Assembly: GCA_041651735.1 (NCBI GenBank)
Contig: JBAZIR010000001.1
Span: 799-64,798, forward strand
Reading direction: 5' to 3'
DNA length: 64,000 nt
Source of the DNA: Verrucomicrobiia bacterium
Lineage (GTDB): Bacteria; Verrucomicrobiota; Verrucomicrobiia; CAIQCK01
Of the stretch, positions 48,263-63,292 are shown one piece after another (within the stretch, counting starts at the first letter, position 1; each line of letters opens with the position of its first letter). The position numbers and the translations under genes are program-made. The notes beneath the pieces were generated by a model. The model saw only the letters and a list, made by a program, of their open reading frames with translations. It did not search any database and had not been told where the DNA came from.

Positions 48263-49216
48263 CTACTTCGCTGCGTCGGGGGGAGCGTTAAAATCGTCGA
48301 TGAACCGCTGGATCAGCGCGGCGTTCCAGTTGCCCGGCATCGGGCTGTCCTGGTTCGCGATGAGGTCGTCCACGGTTGGCTGTTTCGACGGCACGCCGTC
48401 GGCCGGCACTTCAAGCCGCGCGATCCAGACGACCGCATTGAGAACGACTTTACGGAAATCATTATGCGCCCAGTTCCAGTGGACGTGGCCGCCGGTGAAG
48501 CCGAAACCGCGCGCGCCGTCGGGCCGTTGATAGGCCCAGCCAACGTCCTCGGCCATTCCCATCCGCGCGCGGACCGCGGGGTTGCCGCTGTGCGGGCCGT
48601 CGGGGCGCTTGCGCGTGCTGTCGGGCGGCACGGCGCTGAGGATCGGCGTCACGCCCTCCATGTTTTCGCGGAACCGCATGTGGCAATACCACTCGTCGTG
48701 AATCCGGAACGGCTTCACGCCACGCGCGACCGGGTGCTGCGGAAGTTTGTTGAACTTGGCGATCCACGACGGATTGATGGACCAGTGTTGTTCGTAGCAA
48801 CCGCCGATCCAGTCGCGCATCTTATCCATCGTTTCCTTCTTGCCGGGGTCTACCGTGTAGTGGAGGCACGCGAGGCCGACGCCTTTTTTCATCAGCGCGT
48901 CGAGTTCGGCAAGGTGCTCGTTGAGCAACCGGCCGCCGTCGCAGTAAATGACGATCGCGTCAGCGCCGTCGAGCGCCTTTGCGTCGGCCGGCCAGCCGCG
49001 CGAAACGATCGCGTGGAGCTTGTCCGGCATCGCATCGTTCAGCGCCTTCGCAAGGAGCAGGCAACCGGCGTTGTGCGCGTGCGAGCCGAAGCCGTGGCTG
49101 CCTGCGCCGGCGAGGAAGACGATCTTCTTTTTGCCGTCAGCCGCGCCGGCATTCCCGGCGAAGCAGAGGACGAGAACCACACCCAGCGGCACGAGCAACG
49201 AGCGAATCAATTTCAT
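48263..49216 (-). CDS. secreted ThuA-like (trehalose-utilisation-type, GATase1-fold) protein
   Basis: Signal peptide, then KKIVFLAGAGSHG...ADAIVIYCDGG...GVGLACLHY...HPVARGVKPFRIHDEWY, which resembles the ThuA domain. Confidence 0.7.
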   Translation of the reverse strand: MKLIRSLLVPLGVVLVLCFAGNAGAADGKKKIVFLAGAGSHGFGSHAHNAGCLLLAKALNDAMPDKLHAIVSRGWPADAKALDGADAIVIYCDGGRLLNEHLAELDALMKKGVGLACLHYTVDPGKKETMDKMRDWIGGCYEQHWSINPSWIAKFNKLPQHPVARGVKPFRIHDEWYCHMRFRENMEGVTPILSAVPPDSTRKRPDGPHSGNPAVRARMGMAEDVGWAYQRPDGARGFGFTGGHVHWNWAHNDFRKVVLNAVVWIARLEVPADGVPSKQPTVDDLIANQDSPMPGNWNAALIQRFIDDFNAPPDAAK

Positions 49217-49353
49217 AATAATGCCTCCGACGGTGGAACTCTTATCATCCGACCTCGATGGAATCCAGCTTCAACCGCAGGGGCGTGTTCTGCAAGATTT
49301 GGCGTGGACGATGCCGGCCCCGGCGGTAGTATGACGGTCAGGAGTACATCATC

Positions 49354-50841
49354 ATGACGACCCAAATGTTTGCTCGCACGTTCGTTCGCAGTCTCTGCTC
49401 CATCCTCTGCGCTGTCATGGCGACGGCATGGCTGTGTCCCGCGACCGGGGGCGCGGCGGCCGACGCCGCCAATCGGTTGCCCAATATCGTTATCATCTTT
49501 TGCGATGACATGGGCTATGCGGACGTCGGTTGTTTCGGCGCCCAGGGCTACACCACGCCGCACCTCGACCGCATGGCGGCGCAGGGCGTGCGCTTCACCA
49601 ACTTCCACGTCCCGCAGGCCGTCTGTTCGGCGTCACGCGCGGCGCTAATGACCGGCTGCTATCCGAACCGCATTGGCATCCACGGCGCGCTCAGTCCGAA
49701 GGTGAACCACGGCATCGCCAACAGCGAGATGACGCTTGCCGAGCTCGTGAAACAGAAAGGCTACGCGACCGGCATGGCAGGCAAATGGCATCTCGGCCAT
49801 CATCCGCAGTTCCTGCCGGTGCATCACGGCTTCGATGAATACCTCGGCCTGCCCTACTCCAACGACATGTGGCCCCGTCACCCGGAGGCAAAGAAAGGAA
49901 CGTATCCCGGCCTGCCGATGATCGAAGGCGACAAACCGATCAAGGTCGGCCTCGACCACAAGGATCAGGAACAACTCACCACGCAATACACCGAGCGCGC
50001 GGTGCGGTTCATCGAAAAGAACAAGGACCGGCCGTTCTTCTTCTATCTCGCCCATTCCATGCCGCACGTGCCGCTCCACGTCAGTGACAAGTTCCGCGGC
50101 AAGACGGCGCGCGGGCTGTTTGGCGATGTGATCTCGGAGATTGACTGGTCGGTCGGCCAGGTGCTCGCCGCGCTGGAGCGCTGCGGCGTCGCCGACAACA
50201 CATGGGTCATCTTCACCAGCGACAACGGGCCGTGGCTTTCCTACGGTGACCACGCGGGATCGACCGGGCCGTTGCGCGAGGGCAAGGGCACCGAGTGGGA
50301 GGGCGGCACGCGCGTGCCGTGCATCATGCGCTGGCCGGACAAACTGGGCGTGGGCAAGTCGAGCGACGCGATGTTCATGACAATTGATTTGTTGCCGACG
50401 ATCGCGAAACTGATCGGCGCGAAACTGCCGGAGCATAAAATTGATGGCCTCGACGTGTGGCCCGTCATCGCCGGCAATCAAGGCGCGAAGAACTCGCACG
50501 AGGCCTATGCGTTCTACTACGCGAACAATCAATTGCAGGGCGTGGGGACCGGCGATGGCCGTTGGAAACTGCTGTTCCCGCACGCTTACCGCACGCTCGG
50601 CGGCAGACCCGGCGGCAAGGACGGCATCCCGGTCAAATACGAGCAGCGCAGGGTCGAACAGCCCGAACTCTACGATCTCCAGAACGACGTGGGTGAAACG
50701 AAGAACATCATCGCCGGGCATCCCGACATCGTGAAACGGCTGGGAACCTTCGCCGAAAAGATGCGCGCCGATCTCGGCGACAATCTGACCAAGCGCAAAG
50801 GCGACGGCGTCCGCGAGCCGGGGAGAATCCCGGAACAGTAG
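49354..50841 (+). CDS. sulfatase (formylglycine-dependent arylsulfatase family)
   Basis: Signal peptide. NIVIIFCDDMGYADVG metal site and CSASRAALMTG (C-x-A-x-R) formylglycine motif. Confidence 0.9.
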   Translation: MTTQMFARTFVRSLCSILCAVMATAWLCPATGGAAADAANRLPNIVIIFCDDMGYADVGCFGAQGYTTPHLDRMAAQGVRFTNFHVPQAVCSASRAALMTGCYPNRIGIHGALSPKVNHGIANSEMTLAELVKQKGYATGMAGKWHLGHHPQFLPVHHGFDEYLGLPYSNDMWPRHPEAKKGTYPGLPMIEGDKPIKVGLDHKDQEQLTTQYTERAVRFIEKNKDRPFFFYLAHSMPHVPLHVSDKFRGKTARGLFGDVISEIDWSVGQVLAALERCGVADNTWVIFTSDNGPWLSYGDHAGSTGPLREGKGTEWEGGTRVPCIMRWPDKLGVGKSSDAMFMTIDLLPTIAKLIGAKLPEHKIDGLDVWPVIAGNQGAKNSHEAYAFYYANNQLQGVGTGDGRWKLLFPHAYRTLGGRPGGKDGIPVKYEQRRVEQPELYDLQNDVGETKNIIAGHPDIVKRLGTFAEKMRADLGDNLTKRKGDGVREPGRIPEQ

Positions 50842-50905
50842 TCCGGCTCGTCCGCGTCATATTTGGCTTGAGCCAACCCGGCGGCTCCCCTAGAAGCAGT
50901 ATGAC

Positions 50906-52087
50906 ATGAGTTCAACTCCTGCCCCTTCCAAACCTGCCTCCTCCAAACCGCCGCGCCTGATGTCGCTCGATGTGTTCCGCGGCTTTACGATGCTCGCGAT
51001 GGCCTCCAGCGGGCTGGGCATCATTGCGGTCGCGAAGAAGATGCCGGACTCGATCTGGGCGAGCATCGCGCCGCAACTGCAACACGTGGAATGGATTGGC
51101 TGCAGCGCATGGGACCTGATTCAGCCGGCGTTCATGTTCATCGTGGGCGTGGCGATGCCGTTCTCGTTCGCGCGGCGCGCGGCCGATGGCCAGTCGTTTG
51201 GGCAGCAATGGCGGCACGCGCTGGTCCGGGCGGCGGTGCTGGTGTTTCTGGGTGCGATGCTCTACGGACAAACCACGCGCGCCTACGTGTTCACCAATGT
51301 GCTCGCGCAGATCGGGCTGGGCTACGCGTTCGTGTTCCTGCTCATCGGTCGCAGTTGGCGCGTGCAGCTCGGAGTGGTTGCAGCAATTCTCGCGGGCTAC
51401 TGGCTGGCGTTCGCGGCATATCCGCTCCCGCCACAGGATTTCGATCATGCGAAGGTTGGCGCCAAGGGCGCGGAGGTGTTGCCCGGTTTCTGGGCGCATT
51501 GGAGCAAGAACACCAACCTCGCCGCGGACTTTGACCGGTGGTTCCTGAACCTTCTGCCGCAGGCGAAGCGGTTCGAGTTCAACAGCGGCGGCTACCAAAC
51601 GCTGAACTTCGTGCCCGAGGCAGTGAACATGATTCTCGGCCTGATGGCGGGGGAGATGTTGCGGCGCGAGACGAACAGCCGCCGGCGGCTGGGCTGGCTC
51701 GCCGTGGCCGGCACGGTATGCCTCGTACTCGGCGGGGTTGCGAGCCTCACGATCTGCCCGATGGTGAAACGGATTTGGACGCCGTCGTTCGCGCTCTGGA
51801 GCGCAGGCTGGACGCTGTGGCTGCTGGCGGCGTTCTACCTGGTGATTGATGTGGCGGGCTGGCGGCGCTGGAGCTTCCCACTGTTGGTTGTTGGCATGAA
51901 CTCCATTGCGATCTACTTGATGGCGCAGCTCTGGCCGGGATGGATCAGGACATTGCTGAAGGCGCACATCGGGCAGGAATTTTTCAGCGGCGCCTACGGC
52001 CCGATCTGGGAGCAATCGGCCGTGCTGCTGGTGCTGTGGATGATCTGCTGGTGGCTGTACCGGCAGCGGGTGTTTCTAAAGATCTGA
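50906..52087 (+). CDS. HGSNAT/DUF5009-like multi-pass membrane acyltransferase
   Basis: RLMSLDVFRGFTMLAM N-terminal motif and about 10-11 TM helices, as in heparan-alpha-glucosaminide N-acetyltransferase homologues (COG4299). Confidence 0.7.
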   Translation: MSSTPAPSKPASSKPPRLMSLDVFRGFTMLAMASSGLGIIAVAKKMPDSIWASIAPQLQHVEWIGCSAWDLIQPAFMFIVGVAMPFSFARRAADGQSFGQQWRHALVRAAVLVFLGAMLYGQTTRAYVFTNVLAQIGLGYAFVFLLIGRSWRVQLGVVAAILAGYWLAFAAYPLPPQDFDHAKVGAKGAEVLPGFWAHWSKNTNLAADFDRWFLNLLPQAKRFEFNSGGYQTLNFVPEAVNMILGLMAGEMLRRETNSRRRLGWLAVAGTVCLVLGGVASLTICPMVKRIWTPSFALWSAGWTLWLLAAFYLVIDVAGWRRWSFPLLVVGMNSIAIYLMAQLWPGWIRTLLKAHIGQEFFSGAYGPIWEQSAVLLVLWMICWWLYRQRVFLKI

Positions 52088-52349
52088 AGCGCGCGATGAG
52101 AATCAGCGGCCGCTGGTCAGGCGCAAGGACAGCGGCGTGCGCGAATCCAGCGATCCCTTGCGTCGCGGCCAGGCTTTGACTTTGCTGTTGTATAGCGCAC
52201 GGCAGGAGCTACACTGCCGCGAAGGTTAACAAGGACATCACCATGACGGTGCCAATGTCGCAGCAAGACCCCCAACACCAGTGCAGACCGCTGTTCCCAT
52301 CCGCTGCGCATTGCAAGACTCACCTCACGCACTGAAGGAAAAGACCCCC

Positions 52350-53705
52350 ATGAACAATCAATTCACCCGCCGCCATTTTATCCAAAGCGCCGCCGCAAGC
52401 TCTGCCGCACTCGCCTGGCTCAGCGCGCGCACCGGTCCCAACGTTTTCGCAGCCGACGCCGCCAAACCCGCCATCCTCGGCGGCAAACCCGCCCACACCG
52501 GCGGCTGGCCGAAGTGGCCGGAGTGGCGCAATGAATGGGAGGCGCAGGTCCTCGATGTGCTGCGCAGCGGCCGTTGGTGCCGCGCGGGCGGCGGCGGCCA
52601 TGTGCCGGAGTTCGAGGCCGCCTGGGCCAAGCTCCTCGGCGCCAAGCGCGCCCTCGGCACCGCCAGCGGCACCACCGCGCTCATCACCAGCCTCTACGTC
52701 GCAGGCGTGGACGCCGGCGACGAAGTCATCTGCTCGCCCTACACCTTCAGCGCCAGCTATAATGCCATCCTCATCCAGAAGGCCCTGCCGGTCTTCGCCG
52801 ACACCAACCCTGAGACGCTCACGATGTGTCCGAAGAGCATCGAGAGCCGCATCACGGAGCGCACCAAAGCCATCCTGCCCGTCCACATCTACGGCATGCC
52901 GTGTTACATGGACGAGATCAACGCCATCGCGAAGAAACACAAACTCGCGGTGGTCGAGGACGCCTGCCAGGCGTGGCTGGCTGAATACAAAGGCCGCAAG
53001 TGCGGCACGCTCGGCGATCTGGGCTGCTTCAGCTTCCAGAACTCCAAGCACATCCCCTCCGGCGAAGGCGGCGCGGTCACCGGCATGAGCGACGAGCTGC
53101 TCGATCGCTGCCATTCGTTCCACAACTGCGGCCGTTCCGTCGGCAGCTTCAAGGGCCACGGCTGTTTCGCCCGCGGTACCAACTACCGGATGCAGCACTT
53201 CCAAGCCGTCATCCTCCTGCAACAGATCGAGAAACTGGTCAAGGAGACCGCGCACCGTCAGGCCAACGCCGACTACCTCATCGCCGGCCTGAACCAGATC
53301 GGCGGCCTCGTCCCCGTGCGTTTGCCGGAGAACAGCCGCGCCGTGTGGCATCTCTTCCCGATGCGATACGACGCTGCGCAATTCAACGGCCTGTCGCGCG
53401 GCAAGTTCATGCAGGCTCTCGGCAAGGAAGGCGTCCCCAGCAGCGGCGGCTACGGCGAGCAATACAACGATGGCATGTTGGACGAAGCGATCAACTCGAC
53501 CGGCTACAAGCGCCTCTGGAGTGCCGACCGGCTCAAGGCCTATCGCGAAAGCTTCAAGGACCTCAAGGGCAACGCGCAGGTTTGCGCGACCACTGTCGCC
53601 ATCGGCCAGAACATGCTGTTGGCCGACCGCAGCGCGATGGACCAGATCCTCGACGCCATTCGCAAGATCAAAGCCCACAGCGCCGCGCTGGCGAAGAAGG
53701 CGTGA
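52350..53705 (+). CDS. DegT/DnrJ/EryC1/StrS-family PLP aminotransferase with twin-arginine leader (paralogue 1)
   Basis: MNNQFTRRHFIQSAAASSAALAWL Tat motif. TASGTTAL, DEVICSPYTF and FSFQNSKHIPSGEGGAV (PLP lysine) motifs. 451 aa. Confidence 0.85.
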   Translation: MNNQFTRRHFIQSAAASSAALAWLSARTGPNVFAADAAKPAILGGKPAHTGGWPKWPEWRNEWEAQVLDVLRSGRWCRAGGGGHVPEFEAAWAKLLGAKRALGTASGTTALITSLYVAGVDAGDEVICSPYTFSASYNAILIQKALPVFADTNPETLTMCPKSIESRITERTKAILPVHIYGMPCYMDEINAIAKKHKLAVVEDACQAWLAEYKGRKCGTLGDLGCFSFQNSKHIPSGEGGAVTGMSDELLDRCHSFHNCGRSVGSFKGHGCFARGTNYRMQHFQAVILLQQIEKLVKETAHRQANADYLIAGLNQIGGLVPVRLPENSRAVWHLFPMRYDAAQFNGLSRGKFMQALGKEGVPSSGGYGEQYNDGMLDEAINSTGYKRLWSADRLKAYRESFKDLKGNAQVCATTVAIGQNMLLADRSAMDQILDAIRKIKAHSAALAKKA

Positions 53706-53821
53706 GAAGACTCCCTTGATGTTGAGACTCGACTCAATAACTCAAACCAGCGCTGTTCCTTCGGGTGGACAGAATTAACAACTCTCGTCCTTTTGCTCCT
53801 GACAGGATCCAGAAGAATTTT

Positions 53822-55093
53822 ATGAACACATCACGTCGTTGTTTTCTTCAGTCGTCGGCCGCGTTTTTGGGCGCCGGTTCCGTGTCGGCTGCCGATTCCA
53901 CCCGGGCCGAAGATCCGCGCCAGCATTATTTCGACGCCTTCTATTACAAGGAGCCGCCTGCGTTCCAGTTCGAGTATCCGTTCGACGGAGGCATTCTCCA
54001 GGAAGGCTGCGGCTATCCTGTCTTGGGCGCCGAGATGGGAACCGACGGCGTCAAACGCCTCAAGGTCCATGTCGTCGTCAAGGCTTCCGGCGTGTCGAAT
54101 CTGGAAGTAGTCATGCCCGAAGGACAGGTCGTTCCGACAAGCATGGTATCCGGCCTGTACATGGGCACGGTCTTGCTCAAGGAGCGCGTCACGCCGATCA
54201 AGGCTCGGGGCAAGCGCAACGGCAAGCAGGTCGAAACCGTTTGCCGGGTCGTCTGGGCGAAAAACGTCTATAAGCGCTACCGGTGCTACATTGATGACCA
54301 CAGTTTCTTTTTCCGCGACATCCTGAAGAATAATTACAAGAGTCTTTTCGACTGTTTCTATCTGGCCAAGTTACGGGAACTGAACCGGCGCTATAAAACG
54401 AAGTTCAACCTGAACTGTTTCAACTCAACGCCGGAACGGGATTTCACCCTTTCGATGTTTCCGGATAAGTACAAGCCGGAGTTCGAAGACAACGCCGACT
54501 GGCTCCGGCTGGCGTTTCATTCGGAAAACGAATTCCCGGGTGAGCCGTATCGCGAAGCGCCGCCGGAAAAGCTCGCGGCGGACTTCGACCTGGTTGCCAA
54601 AGAACTTAAGCGGATCGCCGGAAAGGCCTACACTGCCGGCCTGCAGATCCATTTCGCGATGGTTCGGGCCGATTCCTACAAAGTGTTGGCGCAGCGGGGC
54701 GTAAAAATGCTCCAGACAAGTGGCAGGAAACATCCATCGTCCGGCGATAAGTTCTGTGACTTCATGTTGCCGAACTCGATTACCGCCTACATCCGCGAGA
54801 ACCAGGGCTGGATGGATTTCGATTCCGGCGTCATTTTCTACAATGGAGCCTTGCCTGCGACCTGCGAATGGACTCCGGTTGAGCAGACGATTCCCCTCAT
54901 GCATCGCAAGCTCGACAACCCCAAACTAAATTCCCTGATCAACATCGCCGGACACGAGCAGTACTGGTGGCCCTTTTACAAAAACTACAAGAAGGACAAC
55001 TTTGATCGTTGGGAAGCGGCACTCCGTTACGTCACCGAACAAGGTTATAAACCGATTTGGATCGAGGACGGTTTCTTCGGCGGTGCCGAATGA
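53822..55093 (+). CDS. exported hypothetical protein (twin-arginine leader), family unknown
   Basis: MNTSRRCFLQSSAAFLGAGSVSA Tat motif. 423 aa, locally AT-richer coding. The pattern YIDDHSFFF / AFHSENE / AGHEQYWWP is only weakly reminiscent of NodB-like deacetylase folds. Confidence 0.55.
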   Translation: MNTSRRCFLQSSAAFLGAGSVSAADSTRAEDPRQHYFDAFYYKEPPAFQFEYPFDGGILQEGCGYPVLGAEMGTDGVKRLKVHVVVKASGVSNLEVVMPEGQVVPTSMVSGLYMGTVLLKERVTPIKARGKRNGKQVETVCRVVWAKNVYKRYRCYIDDHSFFFRDILKNNYKSLFDCFYLAKLRELNRRYKTKFNLNCFNSTPERDFTLSMFPDKYKPEFEDNADWLRLAFHSENEFPGEPYREAPPEKLAADFDLVAKELKRIAGKAYTAGLQIHFAMVRADSYKVLAQRGVKMLQTSGRKHPSSGDKFCDFMLPNSITAYIRENQGWMDFDSGVIFYNGALPATCEWTPVEQTIPLMHRKLDNPKLNSLINIAGHEQYWWPFYKNYKKDNFDRWEAALRYVTEQGYKPIWIEDGFFGGAE

Positions 55094-55103
55094 CGATGTA
55101 CGG

Positions 55104-55145
55104 TGCGGCATTCAGCCAATCGCCGCGCTGACGAAGAAGGCGTAG
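55104..55145 (+). pseudogene. relic of a DegT paralogue 3' end
   Basis: ATCGCCGCGCTGACGAAGAAGGCGTAG (I-A-A-L-T-K-K-A-stop) versus the DegT1 end AGCGCCGCGCTGGCGAAGAAGGCGTGA (S-A-A-L-A-K-K-A-stop). No upstream DegT ORF is attached. Confidence 0.5.
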
Positions 55146-55233
55146 GAAGTCGGCTGCGAAGGCTGCGGCAGAACTGCTGCAACGAACAACAGCAGCGGTA
55201 TAGCCGAGACGCCTGCGCCATCTTGAGAGCGCG

Positions 55234-56727
55234 ATGAAGAGAATCTCTTACAAGTTGCGGGGAGTTGTCTCAGTATGGATGCTCATCGTCACGACGGTTC
55301 CTCTTCTGCATGGGGATCATGGGCCGATGAGATTGGGTGAAGCAGTGCAACGGTCCGAACTGATCATCCTCGGGAAGCTGGTCCCTAACGGGGAGAAACT
55401 TGATGTGACAGTAGAGGAAGTTCTGAAGGGGACTTTGCCGCAGAACTTCGCTCTACAATGCTGGTCATCGTCCTACAAGACGAAAGAAGGACGCGAGACG
55501 CGAAACTACGTATTTGATATGGAGACCTTTTTGGCACTTGAGGATTTGGTCTCGTCGCCTCGACGTCTCATTTTTCTCCACACTGATTGGATGAAGCGAA
55601 TCATGCCGTTTCACCCCGCCTGCTTTCAGACATTGGAAGTCAAACCGCGCGTCATTGAACTGCTCGCCATGATGCGCAACCCCGCGCCGTTCGTTTCCTC
55701 GCAGAAATACCGGGACGACATTGATCTAATCAACTTGCTCGGCTATCTGTTTTACGCCGCTCGCGTCTCAGCGCCGGGGCTGCCGGATTTGGAGAGGAGT
55801 TTTAGCGGAAACTACGAGCAGATCCCTTGGGAGCACATCTGTTTCACACTCAAGTTCACGTTTGTGCCGACACGAAAACCAATGCTTCAGATGGAGCCTT
55901 TTGATGTCAAAGGGCCTATTGCACACCTCATTCGTCAGGCTCATGACTCAGGCTATCTGGAAAAAGAGGCCAGTCAGGCGAAGAACAAACTCCCGGCGGC
56001 TTTCAGTGTAACGGTAGATACGACTTGGAAGACACGTGTCGGGGATCTTTCTTCAGAGGCAGCCGCTGAGTTTCTGCGGGCACGGCTTCGGTCTGAGGAT
56101 TTGGAGGTCGTCCAAGCCTCGTTTCATGCGTTGGGTTTGATGCTCGACCGGGATGCAGTGCCGATTGCCATTGACATGCTCCGGCTGTTGCATAAAGACC
56201 GCAAGTTTCGCGCTGCTGCTGCTCGGTTTCTTTCGTGGGCAAAGGACCCACGCTCGGTCGCAGCGATCTGCATGACACTTGACGAACTGCCACGTTATAT
56301 CCCTTACGGCGGCAACCCCGATTACGACCCAGTCTTGAATGAACTGGGATCAGGCCTTGGGGAAGCAGTCTGTAACCTCCGCGATGCGAAAACGATCCCT
56401 GCTCTCAAGCGCGCGATACTCAAAGGCTATGCAGGTTTCCGAATCTCTTGGACGTTGAGTCAAATTGGGAGTGAAGACGCGTTCGAGGTTCTTATCACGA
56501 ATGTGCGTTCTCTGCCTGCTGGAGACTCTTTTTTTTCCGCCCTTGAGCTAGTGAATATGGTCCGACGTTCAAATCTGCCAATTGAACCTTGGATGAAACG
56601 ACAGTCCTCTGACAGCGCTTCGAATCCTGGTTTTGTCGCACAGTGGGTCGAATGGTGGGAACAACACAAGGCGGAATTCCGGATTGTTCGCTCATCGGAG
56701 GAGGCTTGGAAACTGTATGGCGACTGA
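55234..56727 (+). CDS. hypothetical protein with signal/anchor and HEAT-like repeats (lower-GC gene)
   Basis: N-terminal VVSVWMLIVTTVPLL. Helical repeat region (EDLEVVQASFHALGLMLDRDAVPIAIDML...KDPRSVAAICMTL...). GC is visibly lower than in the flanks. Confidence 0.5.
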   Translation: MKRISYKLRGVVSVWMLIVTTVPLLHGDHGPMRLGEAVQRSELIILGKLVPNGEKLDVTVEEVLKGTLPQNFALQCWSSSYKTKEGRETRNYVFDMETFLALEDLVSSPRRLIFLHTDWMKRIMPFHPACFQTLEVKPRVIELLAMMRNPAPFVSSQKYRDDIDLINLLGYLFYAARVSAPGLPDLERSFSGNYEQIPWEHICFTLKFTFVPTRKPMLQMEPFDVKGPIAHLIRQAHDSGYLEKEASQAKNKLPAAFSVTVDTTWKTRVGDLSSEAAAEFLRARLRSEDLEVVQASFHALGLMLDRDAVPIAIDMLRLLHKDRKFRAAAARFLSWAKDPRSVAAICMTLDELPRYIPYGGNPDYDPVLNELGSGLGEAVCNLRDAKTIPALKRAILKGYAGFRISWTLSQIGSEDAFEVLITNVRSLPAGDSFFSALELVNMVRRSNLPIEPWMKRQSSDSASNPGFVAQWVEWWEQHKAEFRIVRSSEEAWKLYGD

Positions 56728-56739
56728 ATTGGAGCACAG

Positions 56740-56760
56740 TCATTAGTTATTGGTCATTGG
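56740..56760. repeat. tandem heptamer tract TCATTAG-TTATTGG-TCATTGG
   Basis: Read directly, 13 nt after the stop of the preceding gene. Confidence 0.7.
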
Positions 56761-56773
56761 GATCACCCTTGAC

Positions 56774-56850
56774 GGTGGGTGGCGGAGGATAGAGCGGTGG
56801 ACAGATTGAGAATCGGAGTGGTGGAGTAGTAGAGTGTCGGCCGGAGGACG
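56774..56850. repeat. G-rich GGAGTGG-type intergenic element (diverged copy)
   Basis: GGTGGGTGGCGGAGG...GATTGAGAATCGGAGTGGTGGAGTAG shares the GGAGTGG and GATTNNGAAT motifs with 58275-58400 and 63295-63445. Confidence 0.45.
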
Positions 56851-56904
56851 TGCGGCATCTGAAGGAACGAATATATCGAGATCGACCGTCATCCGAACAC
56901 CACT

Positions 56905-58272
56905 ATGAAAAAGACATTACTGGTCATTGCTTTGGTGACAGCGGTTTCGCGCGCGGCGGAGCCTCAGCATGCGGTGGAGACGTGCCCGGCGAGCAGCGCT
57001 GCACAGGCGGAGTATGTTCTCTACGATGATTTCTCGTGGCCCAACACCACTCTCGACCGGGCGAAATGGTGGCGAGGAGGTTTGGATGGCGTGGACGGCA
57101 CAAACACCATATTGAACGAGTCGGATCTTACGTCTTCGGTGATGTTCTCTGGAGGTGACTTCAAGTTCGTGATCGGCGGGCCCTCCGCCTCGTCGCAGGG
57201 GCTTTTTGGTTTGGGTGACATTGACGACGGTGACCCGTTCCTCATTCTTTCCGACAAGGGGGCAGGCTGGCGTTTTCACGTTCGAAGCGGCTCGAAGACT
57301 TACACAGGCCCGGTCATTGCGTCCTCGCTGGCCAAGGGTGATGTGGTTGTGTTCCATTGGGACTCGAACGGTTCCAGCGTCTCGATCAACGGAGTAGTGA
57401 AGGACTCGCAGTCAACCGTGCATCCGCCCCACATGCCGCTGACCATGCTGGAGTGGACCGGCACTGCGACCCAGCCGGATAGGGCCAGTGGAAGGATGGT
57501 CCTGGACTCTGTCAGCTATTCAGCTACCCCGGTTTCCAGTCCGAAGCCTTCGACGACGACTTCTGTCGAGTCAACCGGGACGAGAGTGTTATCCGCAAAG
57601 CTGGTGGAGGACACTTTCGTTGACTGCTCAAACCCCGGCACAAACGTCAATGGAAGCACGCATCAGATTTACATTCGAAACAGCCGATATCATCCCGACC
57701 TCACCGGGGCCGGAAAAACATTGGACGCAGGCCATTTGGGATTGGTTCAGTTTGCCTTGCCTCAACTTCCCGCTGGCTGGAATGTGACCGCCGCGCGGCT
57801 TGCGGGTGAGGTTGCTCAGAACCATAAGTCGTATGGCATGCCCGGTTGGGCGCCAGCCAGGCCGATAGAGCTGGAGGTGCTGGGTCTCGGCGTGAATCCT
57901 GATCTTGCCGCGGTTACCTACAATGCCGTGCATGATGCCACGGGCCACGGCGTGATAACCGATTACTCGGCTTCAGGCAGTGTCAATTTCACATTCGGCA
58001 GTCAGGCTCAGTCGCTGGAGGTCTTGCGATTCAATACGTCCGCGACACCTGCCGGCAGTCTTTTGCAGTTCCCGGATCCAGAGGGCAAGCTGTGCGCATT
58101 CGTGCGAAGCAAGATCAGTCGCACCGGACCCGTGGTTATCACACTCGCCATAGGTCCGGGTCGAACGCAGGCTGTATCGGGGATGGACTGCGACTTCAAG
58201 TTTTACGCCAAGGAGAATACTGCCGGCCGGTCTCCCATGTCGCTCACGCTGGAACTAAAACAGGTGCCGTGA
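56905..58272 (+). CDS. secreted hypothetical protein, two beta-rich modules (LamG/jelly-roll-like N-terminal; DNRLRE/CBM-like C-terminal, from memory)
   Basis: Signal peptide MKKTLLVIALVTAVSRA, Ser/Thr/Pro linker SSPKPSTTTS. Lower-GC gene. No catalytic motif recognised. Confidence 0.5.
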   Translation: MKKTLLVIALVTAVSRAAEPQHAVETCPASSAAQAEYVLYDDFSWPNTTLDRAKWWRGGLDGVDGTNTILNESDLTSSVMFSGGDFKFVIGGPSASSQGLFGLGDIDDGDPFLILSDKGAGWRFHVRSGSKTYTGPVIASSLAKGDVVVFHWDSNGSSVSINGVVKDSQSTVHPPHMPLTMLEWTGTATQPDRASGRMVLDSVSYSATPVSSPKPSTTTSVESTGTRVLSAKLVEDTFVDCSNPGTNVNGSTHQIYIRNSRYHPDLTGAGKTLDAGHLGLVQFALPQLPAGWNVTAARLAGEVAQNHKSYGMPGWAPARPIELEVLGLGVNPDLAAVTYNAVHDATGHGVITDYSASGSVNFTFGSQAQSLEVLRFNTSATPAGSLLQFPDPEGKLCAFVRSKISRTGPVVITLAIGPGRTQAVSGMDCDFKFYAKENTAGRSPMSLTLELKQVP

Positions 58273-58274
58273 CT

Positions 58275-58400
58275 GTCGGCGTGATCAACGCCTGACTCTG
58301 GACGGATTCCTGGTCCTTCCGGTGGCGAGGGGGAGTGGAGTGTTGGGTCGCTGGAGTGGTGGGACCGGAGGGATTCGGAATGAGCCGAAGGCGCGGCATT
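58275..58400. repeat. dispersed 3'-flank repeat element, copy B
   Basis: GTCGG...CCTGACTCTGGACGG...GGAGTGGAGTG..CTGGAGTGGTGGGA..GGATTCGGAATGAG aligns by eye with copy C at 63295-63445. It starts 3 nt after a stop codon. Confidence 0.6.
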
Positions 58401-58408
58401 GGTAACAG

Positions 58409-58450
58409 GTGATTCATGACTTGTGACTCGTGACTCGTGATTCGTGTGCG
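58409..58450. repeat. tandem heptamer tract (GTGACTC)n
   Basis: GTGATTC ATGACTT GTGACTC GTGACTC GTGATTC GTGTGCG: six 7-nt units read directly. Confidence 0.85.
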
Positions 58451-58633
58451 TCCATTTTCATACGTTGCGGCGATCTGGGTTTGGCCTTGACGGTTTGGAA
58501 CACGGGCGTAGGCTGCGCAGCAGCAAGGTGAGAGCGTATCGCGAGAGTACCAAGGAGCGAAAGGCAACGCCCGGATTTGCACAATTACTGTCGGCCGGCT
58601 GCAACTGACATACATGACTGAAGGAGATTCCCC

Positions 58634-59788
58634 ATGAAGACACACAAGATCAGCCGAACTCAATTCGTCCGCGAAGGAGCATGTCTTGCGGCCGGGGCAT
58701 TCTTCAGCGACGTGTTCGCACCGCAAACCGCCTGCGCGCAGGAGAACCGGCCGCAATGCGCATCTCAACCCTCCGGTTGTCCCGGGGCGGCCGCTGCCGG
58801 GAAATCCGGTTTCACGTTGCGGCCTTACGAACTCCTTTGCCTCGTGTGTTCCCTCGGCGGGGACCGGGGCTGTCCTCAGAATGCGAAACTCGCGGCTGCG
58901 CTGGAGAAAATCCGGCGGCAGCCGGACATTCCGCTGACGCTATGCTGCAATGCGGGCGATGTTTACTCCTACCAAGACCCGGGCACCGAAGCGGACACCG
59001 CGGAGGGCCGCGATTACAATCGCAAGCGCGACCTCGACATCCTGCTGAAGCTCGACGCCGCGCCCGGCGCCACGCAACCGGCGCGGATTTGGCTGGCCAT
59101 GCTGCTCAAACGGATTTCCACGGTGGCGGGACTATGTGCCTACAGCAGCGTCACGTCGGAGGCCTGGAAAGGTTGTGCCAAAGCCGCGAGCGGCTGTTAC
59201 GAACGGGCGCAGAAGCAGGGCTTGACCCTGCTCATCCCGCCCCGCGACGAGGCGGAGATGACGCGCGAGAAGGAAGCTTCGATCGCCGCGCTGAAATCCG
59301 CCAAAGAAGTCACCATCCGGCCTCATATCCTTGTTTGTGCGGTGTGCCAGTATGGCGGCGGCACACGTCCCCCATTCAAGCCTGACAATCTCCCGGAGCT
59401 TTTGCAGATGATCCTCACCGAGCGGCCGGACGTGCCGGTCAAATTCGTGCGCGGCGCGGATTGGATGATGTGCGCGCCCTGTCCCTCGCGCGTCGCGGCG
59501 ACCAATGCCTGCGTGTGCGGCGCGATCAAGTCGGGTGGCCTATACAACGAGTTGAAGGATCTCAACGTGCTTCAACGTCTCGGGCTGACTTTTGGTTCCA
59601 CCATGAAGGCTCGCGACCTGTGTCTGCTGATTTTTGAGAAAATCCCGACCGTGACAGGCGTGTGCGCGCTGGATATCGATGGCTTGGCCGCGCAGTCCAT
59701 CTGGCGCGACGGCTGCGGCGGCAAACCTCACCCCGCTTACGACAAGGGTCGCAAAGCGTTGCTCGAGAAACTGGGCGGGAAAGCCTGA
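58634..59788 (+). CDS. exported Cys-rich protein made of two homologous modules (DUF1284-like, from memory)
   Basis: Leader MKTHKISRTQFVREGACLAAGAFF (Tat-like, but with a single Arg). Module 1 has LRPYELLCLVCSLGG...STVAGLCA; module 2 has IRPHILVCAVCQYGGG...PTVTGVCA. 21 Cys in 384 aa. Confidence 0.6.
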   Translation: MKTHKISRTQFVREGACLAAGAFFSDVFAPQTACAQENRPQCASQPSGCPGAAAAGKSGFTLRPYELLCLVCSLGGDRGCPQNAKLAAALEKIRRQPDIPLTLCCNAGDVYSYQDPGTEADTAEGRDYNRKRDLDILLKLDAAPGATQPARIWLAMLLKRISTVAGLCAYSSVTSEAWKGCAKAASGCYERAQKQGLTLLIPPRDEAEMTREKEASIAALKSAKEVTIRPHILVCAVCQYGGGTRPPFKPDNLPELLQMILTERPDVPVKFVRGADWMMCAPCPSRVAATNACVCGAIKSGGLYNELKDLNVLQRLGLTFGSTMKARDLCLLIFEKIPTVTGVCALDIDGLAAQSIWRDGCGGKPHPAYDKGRKALLEKLGGKA

Positions 59789-59854
59789 AGACCGCCGCCA
59801 TCCACTGCGTATCAACCCGACTCGCTCAACTGACTAAAGGAGTTCCCTCTCCCC

Positions 59855-61210
59855 ATGAACAACCAACTCACCCGCCGCCATTTCATTCAAACCGCCGCCG
59901 CAGGCTCCGCCGCGCTCATCTGGCTTGGTGGGCACAGCGGCCCGAACGTCTTTGCAGCGGACGCCGCCAAACCCGCCGTCCTCGGCGGCAAGCCCGCCCA
60001 CACGGGCGGCTGGCCGAAGTGGCCGGAGTGGCATCAGGAATGGGAGGCCCAGGTCCTCGACGTGCTCCGCAGCGGAAAATGGTGCCGCGCAGGCGTTGGC
60101 GGCCAGGTGCCGGAGTTCGAGGCCGCATGGGCCAAACTCCTCGGCGTCAAACGCGCCCTCGCCACGTCCAGCGGCACCACCGCGCTCATCACCAGCCTCC
60201 ATGTCGTGGGAGTGGACGCCGGCGACGAAGTCATCGTCTCGCCTTTTACTTTCAACGCCGCCTACAACGTCATCCTGACCCAGAAAGCCCTGCCGGTGTT
60301 TGCCGACACCGACCCCGAGACGCTCACGATGTGTCCGAAGTCCATCGAGAGCCGGATCACTGAGCGCACCAAGGCCATCCTGCCGGTCCACATTTACGGC
60401 ATGCCCTGCGACATGGACCCGATCAACGCCATCGCCAAAAAACACAAGCTCGCCGTCGTGGAGGACGCCTGCCAGGCGAACATGGCGGAATACAAAGGCC
60501 GCAAGTGCGGCACGCTCGGCGACCTCGGCTGCTTCAGTTTCCAGAACTCCAAGCACATGCCCGCCGGCGAAGGCGGCGCGGTCGTTGGCATGAGCGACGA
60601 GCTGCTGGACCGCTGTCATTCGTTCCACAACTGCGGCCGTTCCGTCGGCAGCTTCAAGGGCCACGGCTGTTTCGCCCGCGGCACCAACTACAGGATGCAA
60701 CATTTCCAAGCCGCCATGCTCCTGCAACGGTTCGACTATTTGCAGAAGGAAACCCAGATTCGTCATGCCAACTCCAGCTATCTCAACGCCAACCTTGCGA
60801 AGATTCCCGGCATCGCCCCCGCGCGTCTGCCGGAGAACAGTTGGGGGACGTATTATCTGTTCCCGTTCCTATACGACGCGCAGCAATTCAACGGACTGCC
60901 GCGCGCCAGGTTCATTCGCGCGCTCGGCGCGGAAGGAATCCCCTGCGGCGCCGGCTACGGTGAACAGTATAACGACGGCATCATCGACGAGGCGATCAAC
61001 TCGACCGGTTACAAGCGCCTCTGGAGCGCCGACCGGCTGAAGGCGTATCGGGAGAGCTTCAACGAACTGAAGGGCACCAAGAAAGCCTGCGAGACGGTCG
61101 TGTGCTTTTCCCACAGCCTGCTCATGGCCGACCGCAGCGCCATGGACCACATCCTCGACGCCATCCGCAAGATCCAAGCCCACAGCGCCGAGTTGGCAAA
61201 GAAGGCGTGA
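59855..61210 (+). CDS. DegT/DnrJ/EryC1/StrS-family PLP aminotransferase with twin-arginine leader (paralogue 2)
   Basis: MNNQLTRRHFIQTAAAGSAALIWL Tat motif and FSFQNSKHMPAGEGGAV PLP-lysine motif. 451 aa, about 80% identical by eye to 52350-53705. Confidence 0.85.
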   Translation: MNNQLTRRHFIQTAAAGSAALIWLGGHSGPNVFAADAAKPAVLGGKPAHTGGWPKWPEWHQEWEAQVLDVLRSGKWCRAGVGGQVPEFEAAWAKLLGVKRALATSSGTTALITSLHVVGVDAGDEVIVSPFTFNAAYNVILTQKALPVFADTDPETLTMCPKSIESRITERTKAILPVHIYGMPCDMDPINAIAKKHKLAVVEDACQANMAEYKGRKCGTLGDLGCFSFQNSKHMPAGEGGAVVGMSDELLDRCHSFHNCGRSVGSFKGHGCFARGTNYRMQHFQAAMLLQRFDYLQKETQIRHANSSYLNANLAKIPGIAPARLPENSWGTYYLFPFLYDAQQFNGLPRARFIRALGAEGIPCGAGYGEQYNDGIIDEAINSTGYKRLWSADRLKAYRESFNELKGTKKACETVVCFSHSLLMADRSAMDHILDAIRKIQAHSAELAKKA

Positions 61211-61298
61211 GAGGAAATGTCTATTGTTGAGACCCGACCCCCAATTCCCCCGCGTGAGAGGAATTGTCTATTGTTGAGACCCGACTCCCAATTTCCCC
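61205..61298. repeat. 47-bp tandem direct duplication spanning the DegT2 stop codon
   Basis: Unit 1 (61205-61251) and unit 2 (61252-61298) differ at 3 of 47 positions: GCGTGAGAGGAAWTGTCTATTGTTGAGACCCGACYCCCAATTYCCCC. A related core, GTTGAGACTCGACTCAAT, lies at 53721-53738 after DegT1. Confidence 0.85.
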
Positions 61299-61366
61299 AC
61301 GGCAAGCCCAAGGCGGCAACGGACCTGAGAGGCGCGACGTGGTTGCGACTGGACGCTCAAAATAGA

Positions 61367-63292
61367 ATGATGACGCGAACGCATCTATTCTTGCTCAGCA
61401 TCTTCCTGGCGGCTGTTCCGATGCAAATATTGGCGGAAGACCGGCAGGAGCTTCCCAAGCGATTACAACGGAAGGACTGCTACTTCGGCGTTCATTTTGA
61501 TTTCCATGCCGAGCCGTCAGACAAAAATATCGGACAGAACACCACGCCGGAAATGGTCAACAAGATGATTGACCTCATCCAGCCTGACTTCATCCAGGTT
61601 GACACCAAAGGACATCCCGGTCTTTCGAGTTACCCGACCCGGGTCGGGAACCACGGCGGGAGTTTTGTCGGTGACCCGCTCAAGGTATGGAGGGAAGTGA
61701 CCGCTCGGCGAGGCGTTGCCTTGTATGCGCACCATTCCGGATTGTGTGACGGGTGTGCCATGAAGAACCATCCCGACTGGGCGTGCGTTGACGCGCAGGG
61801 CCATACGAACAACGCCTACGTGTCGCTTTCCGGCCCGTATGCGGACAAGCTGCTGATACCGCAGCTCATCGAGCTGGCCGTTGATTACAAACTCGACGGC
61901 GCCTGGGTTGACGCGGAATGCATGGGCGCGACGGTTGATTATTCGGCTGCCGCGAAGAGAGCGTTTACCCAACAGACCGGGATCACGGCGATCCCGGCAA
62001 AACCGGGCGATCCTGAGTGGTTCACATGGACGCAGTTCCACCGGGAGGCTTTCCGAAAATACCTCCGGCATCATACCTCGGAGGTGAAGAAGAAGGCTCC
62101 GTGGTTTCAGTTCTGCTCGAACTACTCCTTTCTGATACCCATGCCGGAACCGGTCAGCGCCGGTGTGGATTTTCTTTCCGCGGATATCATGGACCTGAAC
62201 CATATGCGTTTCTATTCCCGTTTCATGGCGTCCCAGGGCATTCCGGGTGATCTCATGTCTTGGAGTTTCACGAAGTGGGGCCTTGGCACCCTGGATCCGC
62301 CGGAATCACGGAAACCGGCCGTCCAGTTGATGCGGGAAGCTGCCAGCGGCATTGCACAGGGGATTGGGTATCAGGCTGTCTTTTCTCAGGCGGGAGCTGG
62401 AAGGCGGCCTGTCCGGGACGGCAGTGTGGACCTGGAAAAACTCAAACCCATGGGCGAGGTCGCGAAATTCTGCCGGGAGCGCCAAAAGGTGTGTTTCAAG
62501 GCGAAGACCGTGCCTCAAATCGCGGTGCTGATTTCGACCGGGGCACAATATCGGAAGATGAGTCAGGTGGGCGACAGGCTATTTGCTTACGAGGGAATGC
62601 ATGCAGGCATTGCCTTTGGCCTGCTGGATAACCAATACGCGGTTGATGTCGTTCATAGCGCGCGGCTGTTGGAACGGCTCCATGAATACCCGTTGGTTGT
62701 TATTTGCGAGCAGGACTATCTCGAACCTGATCTGCGGGATCGGGTAGCCGGTTACGTGCAACAGGGCGGCAAGCTTCTCCTGATCGGTGACGGGATGGTC
62801 AAGCTATTCGGCAAGGAGATCGGCGGAGCGGAAAAGCATGAGATGCCTCAAGGCCTGTCCCCTCAGTCCTTTGCTTGCTACACGTTCGGAAAAGGAATGA
62901 TTGGCGTCCTTCCCCAACAGATCGGCGCTGAATATGCCAAAAAAGCTGATCCTGTTGTGCGGGATCTGATCGGCGTTGCCGCAAAGACGTTGTTTCCCAA
63001 TCCGATCGCGGTTGTCACCGGTTCCCACGATCTCGACGTTTCCGCTATGCGAACTCCGGCGGGCGGGCTTGCCGTGCATTTGGTCAACACATCCGGTCCT
63101 CACGAGCAATCCGCTTTGCTTTCCTCGATTGCGCGCGTCGGGCCACTGTCGGTGACGATCCGTTTCGGAACGAGACCCAAGCGCGTGCTTTTAGAGCCGG
63201 GCAGCCGGGAGTGCGGTCATGCTTATGAGAACGGCAACATTCGGTTGAATGTTGATGAAGTGAAACTGCATGAGATCATAGTTGTGGAATAG
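61367..63292 (+). CDS. secreted putative glycoside hydrolase (GHL6/GH42-like TIM barrel plus GH42M-like domain)
   Basis: Signal peptide MMTRTHLFLLSIFLAAVPMQILA. FGVHFDFHA...IQVDTKGHPG...DGAWVDAECMG barrel-like motifs. C-terminal IAVLIS...YPLVVICEQDYL...GGKLLLIGDG resembles the GH42 trimerisation domain. Confidence 0.55.
   Translation: MMTRTHLFLLSIFLAAVPMQILAEDRQELPKRLQRKDCYFGVHFDFHAEPSDKNIGQNTTPEMVNKMIDLIQPDFIQVDTKGHPGLSSYPTRVGNHGGSFVGDPLKVWREVTARRGVALYAHHSGLCDGCAMKNHPDWACVDAQGHTNNAYVSLSGPYADKLLIPQLIELAVDYKLDGAWVDAECMGATVDYSAAAKRAFTQQTGITAIPAKPGDPEWFTWTQFHREAFRKYLRHHTSEVKKKAPWFQFCSNYSFLIPMPEPVSAGVDFLSADIMDLNHMRFYSRFMASQGIPGDLMSWSFTKWGLGTLDPPESRKPAVQLMREAASGIAQGIGYQAVFSQAGAGRRPVRDGSVDLEKLKPMGEVAKFCRERQKVCFKAKTVPQIAVLISTGAQYRKMSQVGDRLFAYEGMHAGIAFGLLDNQYAVDVVHSARLLERLHEYPLVVICEQDYLEPDLRDRVAGYVQQGGKLLLIGDGMVKLFGKEIGGAEKHEMPQGLSPQSFACYTFGKGMIGVLPQQIGAEYAKKADPVVRDLIGVAAKTLFPNPIAVVTGSHDLDVSAMRTPAGGLAVHLVNTSGPHEQSALLSSIARVGPLSVTIRFGTRPKRVLLEPGSRECGHAYENGNIRLNVDEVKLHEIIVVE

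Follow-up and report, generated by a model that had tools for sequence, protein, structure and literature searches.

Tat-signal DegT-family aminotransferases from a Verrucomicrobiia bacterium belong to a multi-phylum clade and are candidate periplasmic transaminases of amino-sugar glycan catabolism

A 64,000-nucleotide stretch of the genome of a Verrucomicrobiia bacterium (contig JBAZIR010000001.1, positions 799 to 64,798 of the forward strand; hereafter the window) contains two genes, DegT-1 and DegT-2, that encode DegT-family aminotransferases dependent on pyridoxal 5'-phosphate (PLP) and equipped with N-terminal signals of the twin-arginine translocation (Tat) type. Together with their relatives they form a large, uncharacterised clade in Verrucomicrobiota, Planctomycetota, Acidobacteriota and Bacteroidota. 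The explanation that we favour, and judge probable though far from certain, is that these proteins are exported, PLP-loaded periplasmic transaminases which interconvert amino and keto sugars during the catabolism of amino-sugar glycans. The two genes of the window are:

52350..53705, plus strand: DegT-1, Tat-signal PLP aminotransferase of 451 aa (PF01041; signal at residues 1 to about 35; Lys233, Asp204)
59855..61210, plus strand: DegT-2, Tat-signal PLP aminotransferase of 451 aa (PF01041; 80% identical to DegT-1)

Family membership was clear, as DegT-1 and DegT-2 scored 295.4 and 297.9 bits, respectively, with the PF01041 model against a gathering cut-off of 19.8. The PLP lysine was found in FSFQNSK(233)H...GEGG, which aligned to ...QQGKVLTAGEGG of the solved structure 5w71, and the PLP-binding aspartate in VVED(204)ACQ, aligned to VIEDCAQ of the same protein. 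Since both Lys233 and Asp204 are intact, the two proteins are of the transaminase type and not His-type dehydratases. The nearest solved structures were L-glutamine:2-deoxy-scyllo-inosose aminotransferases (5w71, 2c7t/2c81; 6e-59), which aligned over residues 52-440 and have the WPxWP motif in common with the window proteins, and NtdA and WbpE were also among the matches in the PDB. By analogy with the 2-deoxy-scyllo-inosose enzymes, substrates without a nucleotide handle would fit a compartment that holds no nucleoside diphosphate (NDP) sugars.

The N-termini of both proteins read MNNQ(F/L)TRRHFIQ, followed by an Ala/Ser-rich hydrophobic region (h-region), AAA(G/S)SAAL..., and a cleavage site between VFA and AD, and all elements of a Tat signal (a motif of the S/T-R-R-x-F-L-K type, the h-region and an AxA site) are present in each. 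The twin-arginine (RR) motif stood in the same place in 118 of the 120 closest homologues (67-100% identity, approximately 450 aa), which also kept the h-region and the AxA site; the remaining two were one fragment and one sequence with an over-extended start. Named members of this set came from Verrucomicrobiota and Planctomycetota (Pirellulaceae, Thermoguttaceae), and Tat-bearing relatives occur in Acidobacteriota and Bacteroidota as well. Across 86 fetched genomic loci, the motif was present in 116 of the 128 DegT genes, the exceptions being mostly truncated or miscalled at the start. The nearest full-length representatives (approximately 40-52% identity, one at 35%) aligned from residue 1-7 and carried RR motifs, while the next shell, consisting of signal-less proteins of approximately 410 aa with 35-40% identity, starts with M-x-KLA-x-GG-x-PVR at query residue 38-41 or thereabouts, which is the predicted mature start. 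Because the signal-less relatives begin at the mature start, the extension of 35-38 residues represents an appended, conserved targeting sequence rather than an annotation artefact. The start codons agree with this, as an AAGGA(A/G) resembling a Shine-Dalgarno (SD) sequence lies upstream of the MNNQ ATG in both copies, in DegT-2 no other start codon stands between that ATG and the preceding stop, and no Met lies between signal and conserved core. The DegT-1 start was placed at 52350, correcting an earlier 52347. The Tat-type motif that an earlier note on this DNA had read from the sequence alone was thus borne out, and the downstream start that could have made it an artefact was rejected.

In an exhaustive search of representatives clustered at 50% identity, 5324 relatives were found at E <= 1e-30. 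A neighbour-joining (NJ) tree of 130 sequences and 400 mature-region columns, calculated without support values, placed the window copies within a large and essentially all-Tat clade, whose few 'non-Tat' members are N-terminally truncated. This clade lies apart from the cytoplasmic radiation that contains 5w71, and two other paralogue types with Tat signals, B and C, are placed in other parts of the tree. None of the NCBIfam equivalog models for NDP-sugar enzymes (PseC, LegC, WecE, ArnB, DesI, RfbH and dTDP-Fuc4N transaminase) was reached by either protein, the best scores being 131.9-185.4 bits against cut-offs of 375-650. The earlier note had named clustering with cytoplasmic NDP-sugar aminotransferases as an outcome that would speak against its proposal, and neither the separate clade nor the low equivalog scores point that way. 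One source labels DegT homologues with Tat signals as 'dTDP-4-amino-4,6-dideoxygalactose transaminase' or 'perosamine synthetase'; for exported proteins that reach no NDP-sugar equivalog cut-off, these labels are probably over-specific.

The neighbourhoods of the Tat-DegT genes were compared across genomes. Genes in the fetched loci were called with a simple caller based on GC content at third codon positions (GC3), which reproduced the genes of the window, and the encoded proteins were then clustered; partners were counted over 77 independent loci, without a genome-wide background. The most frequent partner was a Gfo/Idh/MocA oxidoreductase (Gfo) with a C2 domain and a Tat signal of its own, which was present in 25 of the 77 loci and within two genes of DegT in 19. 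A Sec-exported protein with three L-PSP/RidA-fold repeats followed with 14 loci, exported ceramidase-like amidases and sulfatases with 12 each, and XylR-type sugar-sensing regulators with eight. NagX-like proteins were found in five loci, always within two genes of DegT. Other loci add PIG-L and CE4 deacetylases, which adjoin DegT in L008 and L006, GH123 hexosaminidases, GHL10, xylose-isomerase-like proteins and a protein with a 3-keto-disaccharide-hydrolase domain. The neighbourhoods in the different phyla share one theme, amino and keto sugars being handled outside the cytoplasm.

In Planctomycetes the partners form a fixed operon with the order [XylR-like], one to four tandem Tat-DegT genes (types C, B, A), Tat-Gfo and triple L-PSP, as exemplified by loci L002, L031, L034, L044, L052 and L083. 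A single operon can hold as many as four DegT paralogues in tandem, drawn from the three types A, B and C (L002 7077-11356; L031, L034, L044, L052, L083). Each has its own RR signal, and the three types fall in different parts of the tree. Their joint occurrence suggests that several exported transaminase specificities act together.

The Gfo partner was closest to two deposited 'dehydrogenase' structures (8tdf and 8tdh), whose enzyme identity a literature search did not establish, and next closest to DgpA and levoglucosan dehydrogenase, two enzymes that oxidise sugars at C3; matches to myo- and scyllo-inositol dehydrogenases were obtained at 1e-8 to 1e-11. The triple L-PSP gene (product of approximately 415-470 aa; L002 13092-14342, L034 7479-8846 and 12 further independent loci) lies downstream of Tat-DegT and Tat-Gfo, usually directly after the latter. 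RidA proteins normally act as trimers, and the triple protein would be such a trimer fused into one chain. At least repeat 2 appeared to be without the equivalent of RidA Arg105, as judged against a RidA reference sequence. A role as a canonical RidA imine deaminase was rejected on this ground, and the protein was not used as proof of imine release.

A cultured member of the Bacteroidota, Proteiniphilum propionicum (WP_238867817.1), carries its Tat-DegT gene inside a polysaccharide utilisation locus (PUL; L087 1-21356, also L088 and L089). The gene order is SusD, ceramidase-like, GH20, GHL10, a gene without family match, MFS, GHL10, Tat-DegT and a MurQ-like SIS protein, with a further GH20 and a GH3 downstream. 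This PUL, from an organism that can be cultivated, is a candidate locus for hexosamine or peptidoglycan-type utilisation.

In the window, DegT-1 and DegT-2 belong to a run of ten genes (48263-63292), each encoding a product with an export signal or membrane segments. The other genes of the run, and a repeat at its end, are:

48263..49216, minus strand: ThuA-domain protein of 317 aa (Pfam ThuA 4.5e-16; Sec-type signal peptide)
49354..50841, plus strand: S1 formylglycine sulfatase of 495 aa (Pfam Sulfatase 3.8e-64; CSASR, Cys91; signal peptide)
50906..52087, plus strand: NagX/HGSNAT-like polytopic membrane protein of 393 aa (NCBIfam NagX 5.8e-42), a putative transmembrane acetyltransferase
53822..55093, plus strand: SRRCFLQ Tat-motif protein of 423 aa, from an unnamed family of the Planctomycetes-Verrucomicrobia-Chlamydiae (PVC) group (GC content 0.55)
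55234..56727, plus strand: HEAT-repeat protein of 497 aa with an N-terminal hydrophobic segment (Pfam HEAT_2 3.9e-9; GC 0.53)
56905..58272, plus strand: secreted 455-aa protein without Pfam or NCBIfam match (GC 0.58)
58634..59788, plus strand: tandem DUF1284-like protein of 384 aa with 21 Cys (weak DUF1284 match; single-Arg Tat-like N-terminus SRTQFV)
61205..61298, no strand: 47-nt tandem direct repeat, 94% identity, spanning the DegT-2 stop and the nominal start of the next open reading frame (ORF)
61367..63292 (ORF from 61217, 691 aa), plus strand: secreted TIM-barrel-like putative glycosidase (sub-threshold GHL6 and GLMA_2nd; GC 0.565)

All eight items listed in the earlier note are present in the sequence, some in corrected form, and the HEAT-repeat and 455-aa proteins are two further exported gene products within the interval. 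The conserved core is ThuA, sulfatase, NagX-like and DegT-1, with DegT-2 added. The order ThuA (on the minus strand), sulfatase, X and DegT is kept in the related Verrucomicrobia L010, L014 and L015, and L017 has sulfatase, X and DegT without ThuA, X being a NagX-like protein or an S15 peptidase in these loci. Beyond close relatives, the only window neighbours that recur near Tat-DegT genes are the NagX-like protein, sulfatases, the SRRCFLQ protein (one locus) and the 691-aa protein (one locus). The proposal that the 15-kb region encodes one pathway therefore stood in part: a context of amino-sugar and glycan catabolism was found across three phyla, but the region is not one conserved unit and few of its neighbours recur. 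The expected linkage fared similarly, as sulfatase, NagX-like and Gfo genes do recur near Tat-DegT, but Gfo, the commonest partner, is absent from the window.

Three of the core neighbours could be assigned with more detail. The ThuA-like protein with its signal was confirmed (PF06283, 60.2 bits against a gathering cut-off of 33.4), and an orthologue with 92% identity occupies the same position in L015. The sulfatase scored 217 bits with its Pfam model and contains the C/S-x-P/A-x-R motif as CSASR, with the Cys at residue 91, as previously read; L015 and L017 have orthologues with 83-84% identity, placed upstream of DegT. Its best PDB matches were arylsulfatase A (ARSA; 4e-81), GALNS, steryl sulfatase and carrageenan sulfatases. 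Sulfamidase (SGSH) was named in none of the 59 PDB matches at E <= 1e-20, and only the model of a C-terminal subdomain, SGSH_C, was matched; the idea of a sulfamidase that this match raises was rejected, as the whole protein resembles O-sulfatases. With O-sulfatases as its nearest matches, the sulfatase gives no backing to the chain of N-desulfation followed by acetylation that had been suggested for this locus.

The HGSNAT-like label given to the 393-aa membrane protein held up. The NagX model was matched over its full length (residues 16-393 to model positions 2-369) at 144.1 bits, below the equivalog cut-off of 480, no Pfam match was obtained at E <= 0.01, and eight hydrophobic 19-mers were counted. 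LQH(60)VEWIGCSAWDLIQPAFMFIVG aligned to FKH(297) of human HGSNAT, which places His60 at the position of His297, the catalytic histidine that carries the acetyl group (PMC9007349). NagX has been tied genetically to glucosamine use and is needed in five bacteria (PMC9007349). NagX-like homologues with 29% identity adjoin Tat-DegT in L065 (Verrucomicrobiales) and L075 (Kiritimatiellae).

The remaining genes of the run are less closely tied to DegT. The SRRCFLQ protein gave no Pfam or NCBIfam match, in keeping with its earlier description as an exported protein of unknown family, and has 227 unnamed-family homologues, those with named hosts mostly from PVC bacteria. Its AlphaFold2 (AF2) model is confident (predicted local distance difference test score, pLDDT, 86.8) and consists of an N-terminal beta-sandwich and an alpha/beta domain; Foldseek returned only weak glycosidase-like matches (template modelling score, TM, <= 0.30), beta-N-acetylgalactosaminidases included. 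A homologue with 37% identity lies near Tat-DegT in L054, and no DegT gene was found within 10 kb of two distant homologues (P0360 and P0394), for which reason the protein was rejected as an obligate DegT partner. Among the fetched loci, homologues of the HEAT-repeat protein occurred near DegT only in close relatives, and the 455-aa protein was found only in close relatives.

The 21 Cys and the internal duplication ascribed to the 384-aa protein were both recovered. It belongs to a tandem-DUF1284 family of 622 homologues (among them P0438-P0557), in which short forms of approximately 330 aa, with no N-terminal extension, can be told from long ones of approximately 380 aa. The extension of the long forms resembles a single-arginine Tat signal (I-T-R-[GS]-E-F-L-R; T-R-x-E-F-L), and a true RR was present in 20 of 62 long forms.

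The GH42-like label of the 691-aa ORF was not sustained. No match to the GH42 catalytic domain was found, the family scores were sub-threshold (GLMA_2nd 26.2 against 27.7, GHL6 21.4 against 35), and a sequence search of the PDB gave one weak match, to the fucosidase 6tvk. A homologue with 43% identity lies four genes from Tat-DegT in L029. The 47-nt repeat begins within the final codons of DegT-2 and takes in ATG 61217, the nominal start of this ORF, to which a TTG corresponds in the second copy; the core 21-mer occurs in the window only at these two places. The real start is likely ATG 61367 or 61370, giving MMTRTHLFLLS... with a Sec-type signal.

Base composition divides the run. The SRRCFLQ, HEAT-repeat and 455-aa genes have a GC content of 0.53-0.58 and the 691-aa ORF downstream of DegT-2 one of 0.565, against 0.63-0.65 for the ThuA, sulfatase, NagX-like, DegT and Cys-rich genes. 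DegT-1 and DegT-2 are separated by four genes, three of them of low GC, and a related metagenome-assembled genome (L015) has DegT-1-like and DegT-2-like genes directly in tandem. Together, these observations suggest an insertion between the DegT copies in the lineage of the window, and all four genes of low GC probably joined a neighbourhood of exported enzymes at a later time. Elsewhere in the window, in an unrelated region, a 169-aa ORF (19129-19638, minus strand) has a clear twin-arginine N-terminus (KVNRRQFIGAAGSAAAGALAVTVARGAEQ).

A possible route for the periplasmic reaction can be outlined, in which we infer the direction, the substrates and the amino acceptor. DegT-1 and DegT-2 would be loaded with PLP, folded in the cytoplasm and exported by Tat, as with PtaA and PvdN, and would in the periplasm interconvert C-NH2 and C=O on sugars or cyclitols without a nucleotide handle. 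Sulfate and acyl groups would first be removed by other exported enzymes (deacetylases, amidases, sulfatases) so that the amine is exposed, after which amino-sugar residues or released amino sugars could be deaminated to keto sugars by the Tat-DegT enzyme. The keto sugar might then be reduced by the Gfo partner (C=O <-> C-OH) or enter chemistry of the 3-keto-glycoside type, for which the ThuA and xylose-isomerase-like genes nearby offer a possible route. The NagX-like protein may provide an alternative fate, the re-acetylation of periplasmic glucosamine, as proposed from fitness data (PMC9007349). In the clade at large, the usual partners in such a scheme would be Tat-Gfo dehydrogenases, amine-exposing N-deacetylases or ceramidase-like amidases, hexosaminidases and NagX-like transacetylases. 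The catabolic direction is preferred because of the PUL, the glycosidases and the sugar-sensing regulators.

Several points weigh against this explanation. The periplasmic source of an amino acceptor or donor is unexplained, as it is for PtaA. Export by Tat is predicted from sequence, and the Pfam TAT_signal model (PF10518) gave 17.2 and 18.2 bits against a gathering cut-off of 22.7 (E = 0.005 and 0.002). The tree that sets the clade apart carries no support values, and the gene caller behind the partner counts was crude. A homologue search of the window found no Gfo/Idh/MocA, L-PSP, ceramidase-like or xylose-isomerase-like gene, and in the 98%-identical relative L010 the nearest Gfo lies seven genes downstream of DegT-2. 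Contexts vary, with some Tat-DegT genes sitting among unrelated genes, and PVC genomes abound in sulfatases and exported hydrolases, so that some of the linkages may be due to chance.

Among the alternatives, the one that survives best is a role in cyclitol metabolism, in which Tat-DegT and an inositol-type Gfo dehydrogenase would interconvert inositol, inosose and inosamine, or attack aminocyclitols and aminoglycosides in the periplasm. The nearest solved relatives, 2-deoxy-scyllo-inosose and scyllo-inositol aminotransferases, and the inositol dehydrogenase matches of the Gfo partner (1e-8 to 1e-11) speak for it. However, the inosose enzymes are only approximately 35-40% identical and are placed in another clade, the Gfo partner matches C3 dehydrogenases of glycosides and levoglucosan best, and the neighbours are directed at glycans (SusD, GH20, GH123, GHL10, CE4, PIG-L, NagX-like proteins and sulfatases), which together leave a cyclitol role rather unlikely.

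It is likewise doubtful, though conceivable, that no external amino donor or acceptor is needed. PLP and pyridoxamine 5'-phosphate (PMP) could be recycled within a single cycle, in which an amino-glycoside is converted to a keto-glycoside, elimination takes place and the amino group is handed back, or the enzyme could work as a PLP-dependent eliminase, with ammonia arising from the enamine or imine that it sets free. A cofactor-loaded Tat enzyme in a compartment without an obvious pool of co-substrate would suit such a cycle, as would the operons with C3-oxidising-type Tat-Gfo and L-PSP-fold proteins and the ThuA, xylose-isomerase-like and 3-keto-disaccharide-hydrolase-domain genes nearby, and there is a precedent in the 3-keto pathway of the periplasm, where bound NAD is recycled in this manner (bioRxiv 10.1101/2024.03.25.586180). 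Taken further, Tat-DegT might, with similarly small probability, be the catalytic core of a hitherto undescribed, cofactor-self-recycling periplasmic breakdown of amino-sugar glycans, which would do with PLP what the GH4/GH109 and 3-keto-glycoside pathways do with NAD and would need no periplasmic amino acceptor. Yet this reasoning proceeds by analogy, DegT-1 and DegT-2 keep the catalytic Lys that ordinary transaminases have, imine-deaminase activity of the L-PSP protein is an unsafe assumption in view of its repeat 2, and PtaA shows that an ordinary transaminase can work in the periplasm.

A biosynthetic function, in which keto sugars on the envelope glycans of the cell itself are aminated in the periplasm and the new amine is acetylated by the NagX-like protein, in the manner of WbpB/E/D, appears improbable. 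The gene orders NagX-like - DegT and DegT - Gfo do mirror biosynthetic triads, and L002 has Wzy_C and GT4 genes at a distance of 6-10 kb from its DegT array, but over the 77 independent loci no glycosyltransferase or flippase was consistently linked, the markers are catabolic (SusD, PUL, glycosidases, sulfatases, XylR-type regulators), there are many paralogues per genome, and the supply of an extracellular amino donor would be even harder to explain for net synthesis. Finally, that the RR motif is an annotation artefact on ordinary cytoplasmic NDP-sugar aminotransferases with a downstream start, as the sub-threshold TAT_signal score and the database names might suggest, is highly improbable in view of the 38-residue extension, whose protein sequence is kept across phyla in 118 of 120 homologues, the first-after-stop ATG of DegT-2, the SD-like motifs before both ATGs, the lack of a Met between signal and core, and the unreached NDP-sugar equivalog models.

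The favoured reading, a periplasmic amino-sugar transaminase, combines features of several known systems. With the BtrR/RbmB-type aminotransferases (2c7t/2c81, 5w71, 5w70) the window proteins have in common the WPxWP motif, the PLP Lys and Asp and, presumably, a substrate without a nucleotide handle. These enzymes, in contrast, are cytoplasmic, have no signal and serve aminoglycoside biosynthesis; cytoplasmic representatives are approximately 35-40% identical to the window proteins, and 5w71 falls in another clade. Pairs of a dehydrogenase and a DegT enzyme are known from NtdC/NtdA, WbpB/WbpE and GnnA/GnnB, which are cytoplasmic and biosynthetic and use sugar phosphates or UDP-sugars, free NAD and glutamate. 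The pairing of Gfo/Idh/MocA with DegT in 25 of the 77 loci resembles these, but there both Tat-DegT and the Gfo partner have Tat signals and the contexts are catabolic.

The closest parallel for the Gfo partner is the 3-keto-glycoside pathway (AL3/BT3; ThuA/ThuB), in which AL3/BT3, a periplasmic Gfo/Idh/MocA enzyme with a Tat signal, holds NAD tightly bound (bioRxiv 10.1101/2024.03.25.586180). The likeness lies in a Tat-exported oxidoreductase that acts with a bound cofactor on periplasmic glycosides, and in the ThuA, xylose-isomerase-like and 3-keto-disaccharide-hydrolase-domain genes of the Tat-DegT neighbourhoods. The pathway as described has no aminotransferase, however (bioRxiv 10.1101/2024.03.25.586180), and the window has no Gfo gene. 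As for NagX/HGSNAT, the 393-aa protein keeps the catalytic His and has a full-length match to the NagX model, but 144 bits is far below the cut-off of 480, and its substrate and activity are putative; relatives include a putative MurNAc (N-acetylmuramic acid) transporter (PMC9007349).

Precedent for the export of such an enzyme comes from fluorescent Pseudomonas, where PtaA, a transaminase, and PvdN are Tat-exported, PLP-containing periplasmic enzymes that tailor pyoverdine (PMC6206403). PtaA is a PLP transaminase exported by Tat in folded form with its cofactor, and the regeneration of PLP from PMP outside the cytoplasm is equally open in its case (PMC6206403). It differs in its substrate, which is a glutamate residue in a siderophore and not a sugar, and in being a single tailoring enzyme, unlike the multi-paralogue clade in glycan-degrading loci. 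The earlier view that no periplasmic DegT-type transaminase is known held insofar as no description of an exported DegT enzyme was found in the searchable literature, whose full-text coverage is incomplete; PtaA and PvdN were the only precedent, and PtaA does provide one for a Tat-exported PLP transaminase. Tat-exported PLP transaminases (PtaA) and DegT sugar transaminases with dehydrogenase partners are thus known already, while a widespread exported DegT clade in glycan-degrading loci appears to be undescribed.

Amino sugars, in chitin and chitosan, peptidoglycan, glycosaminoglycans, mucins and bacterial surface glycans, constitute a large pool of organic carbon and nitrogen. To our knowledge, the amino group is removed in known amino-sugar catabolism only after uptake and phosphorylation, in the cytoplasm. 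If the favoured explanation is correct, an extracytoplasmic step of deamination or amination would be added to glycan degradation, and many genes that at present bear the wrong label, 'perosamine synthetase' or 'dTDP-Fuc4N transaminase', would gain a function. The question, raised by PtaA, of how PLP and PMP are cycled outside the cytoplasm would become sharper, and the clade may be a source of transaminases that take sugars with no nucleotide handle and are useful for amino-sugar synthesis. The clade often occurs in a fixed operon with Tat-exported dehydrogenases, and the cultured Proteiniphilum, with its gene in a PUL, would be a good experimental entry point.

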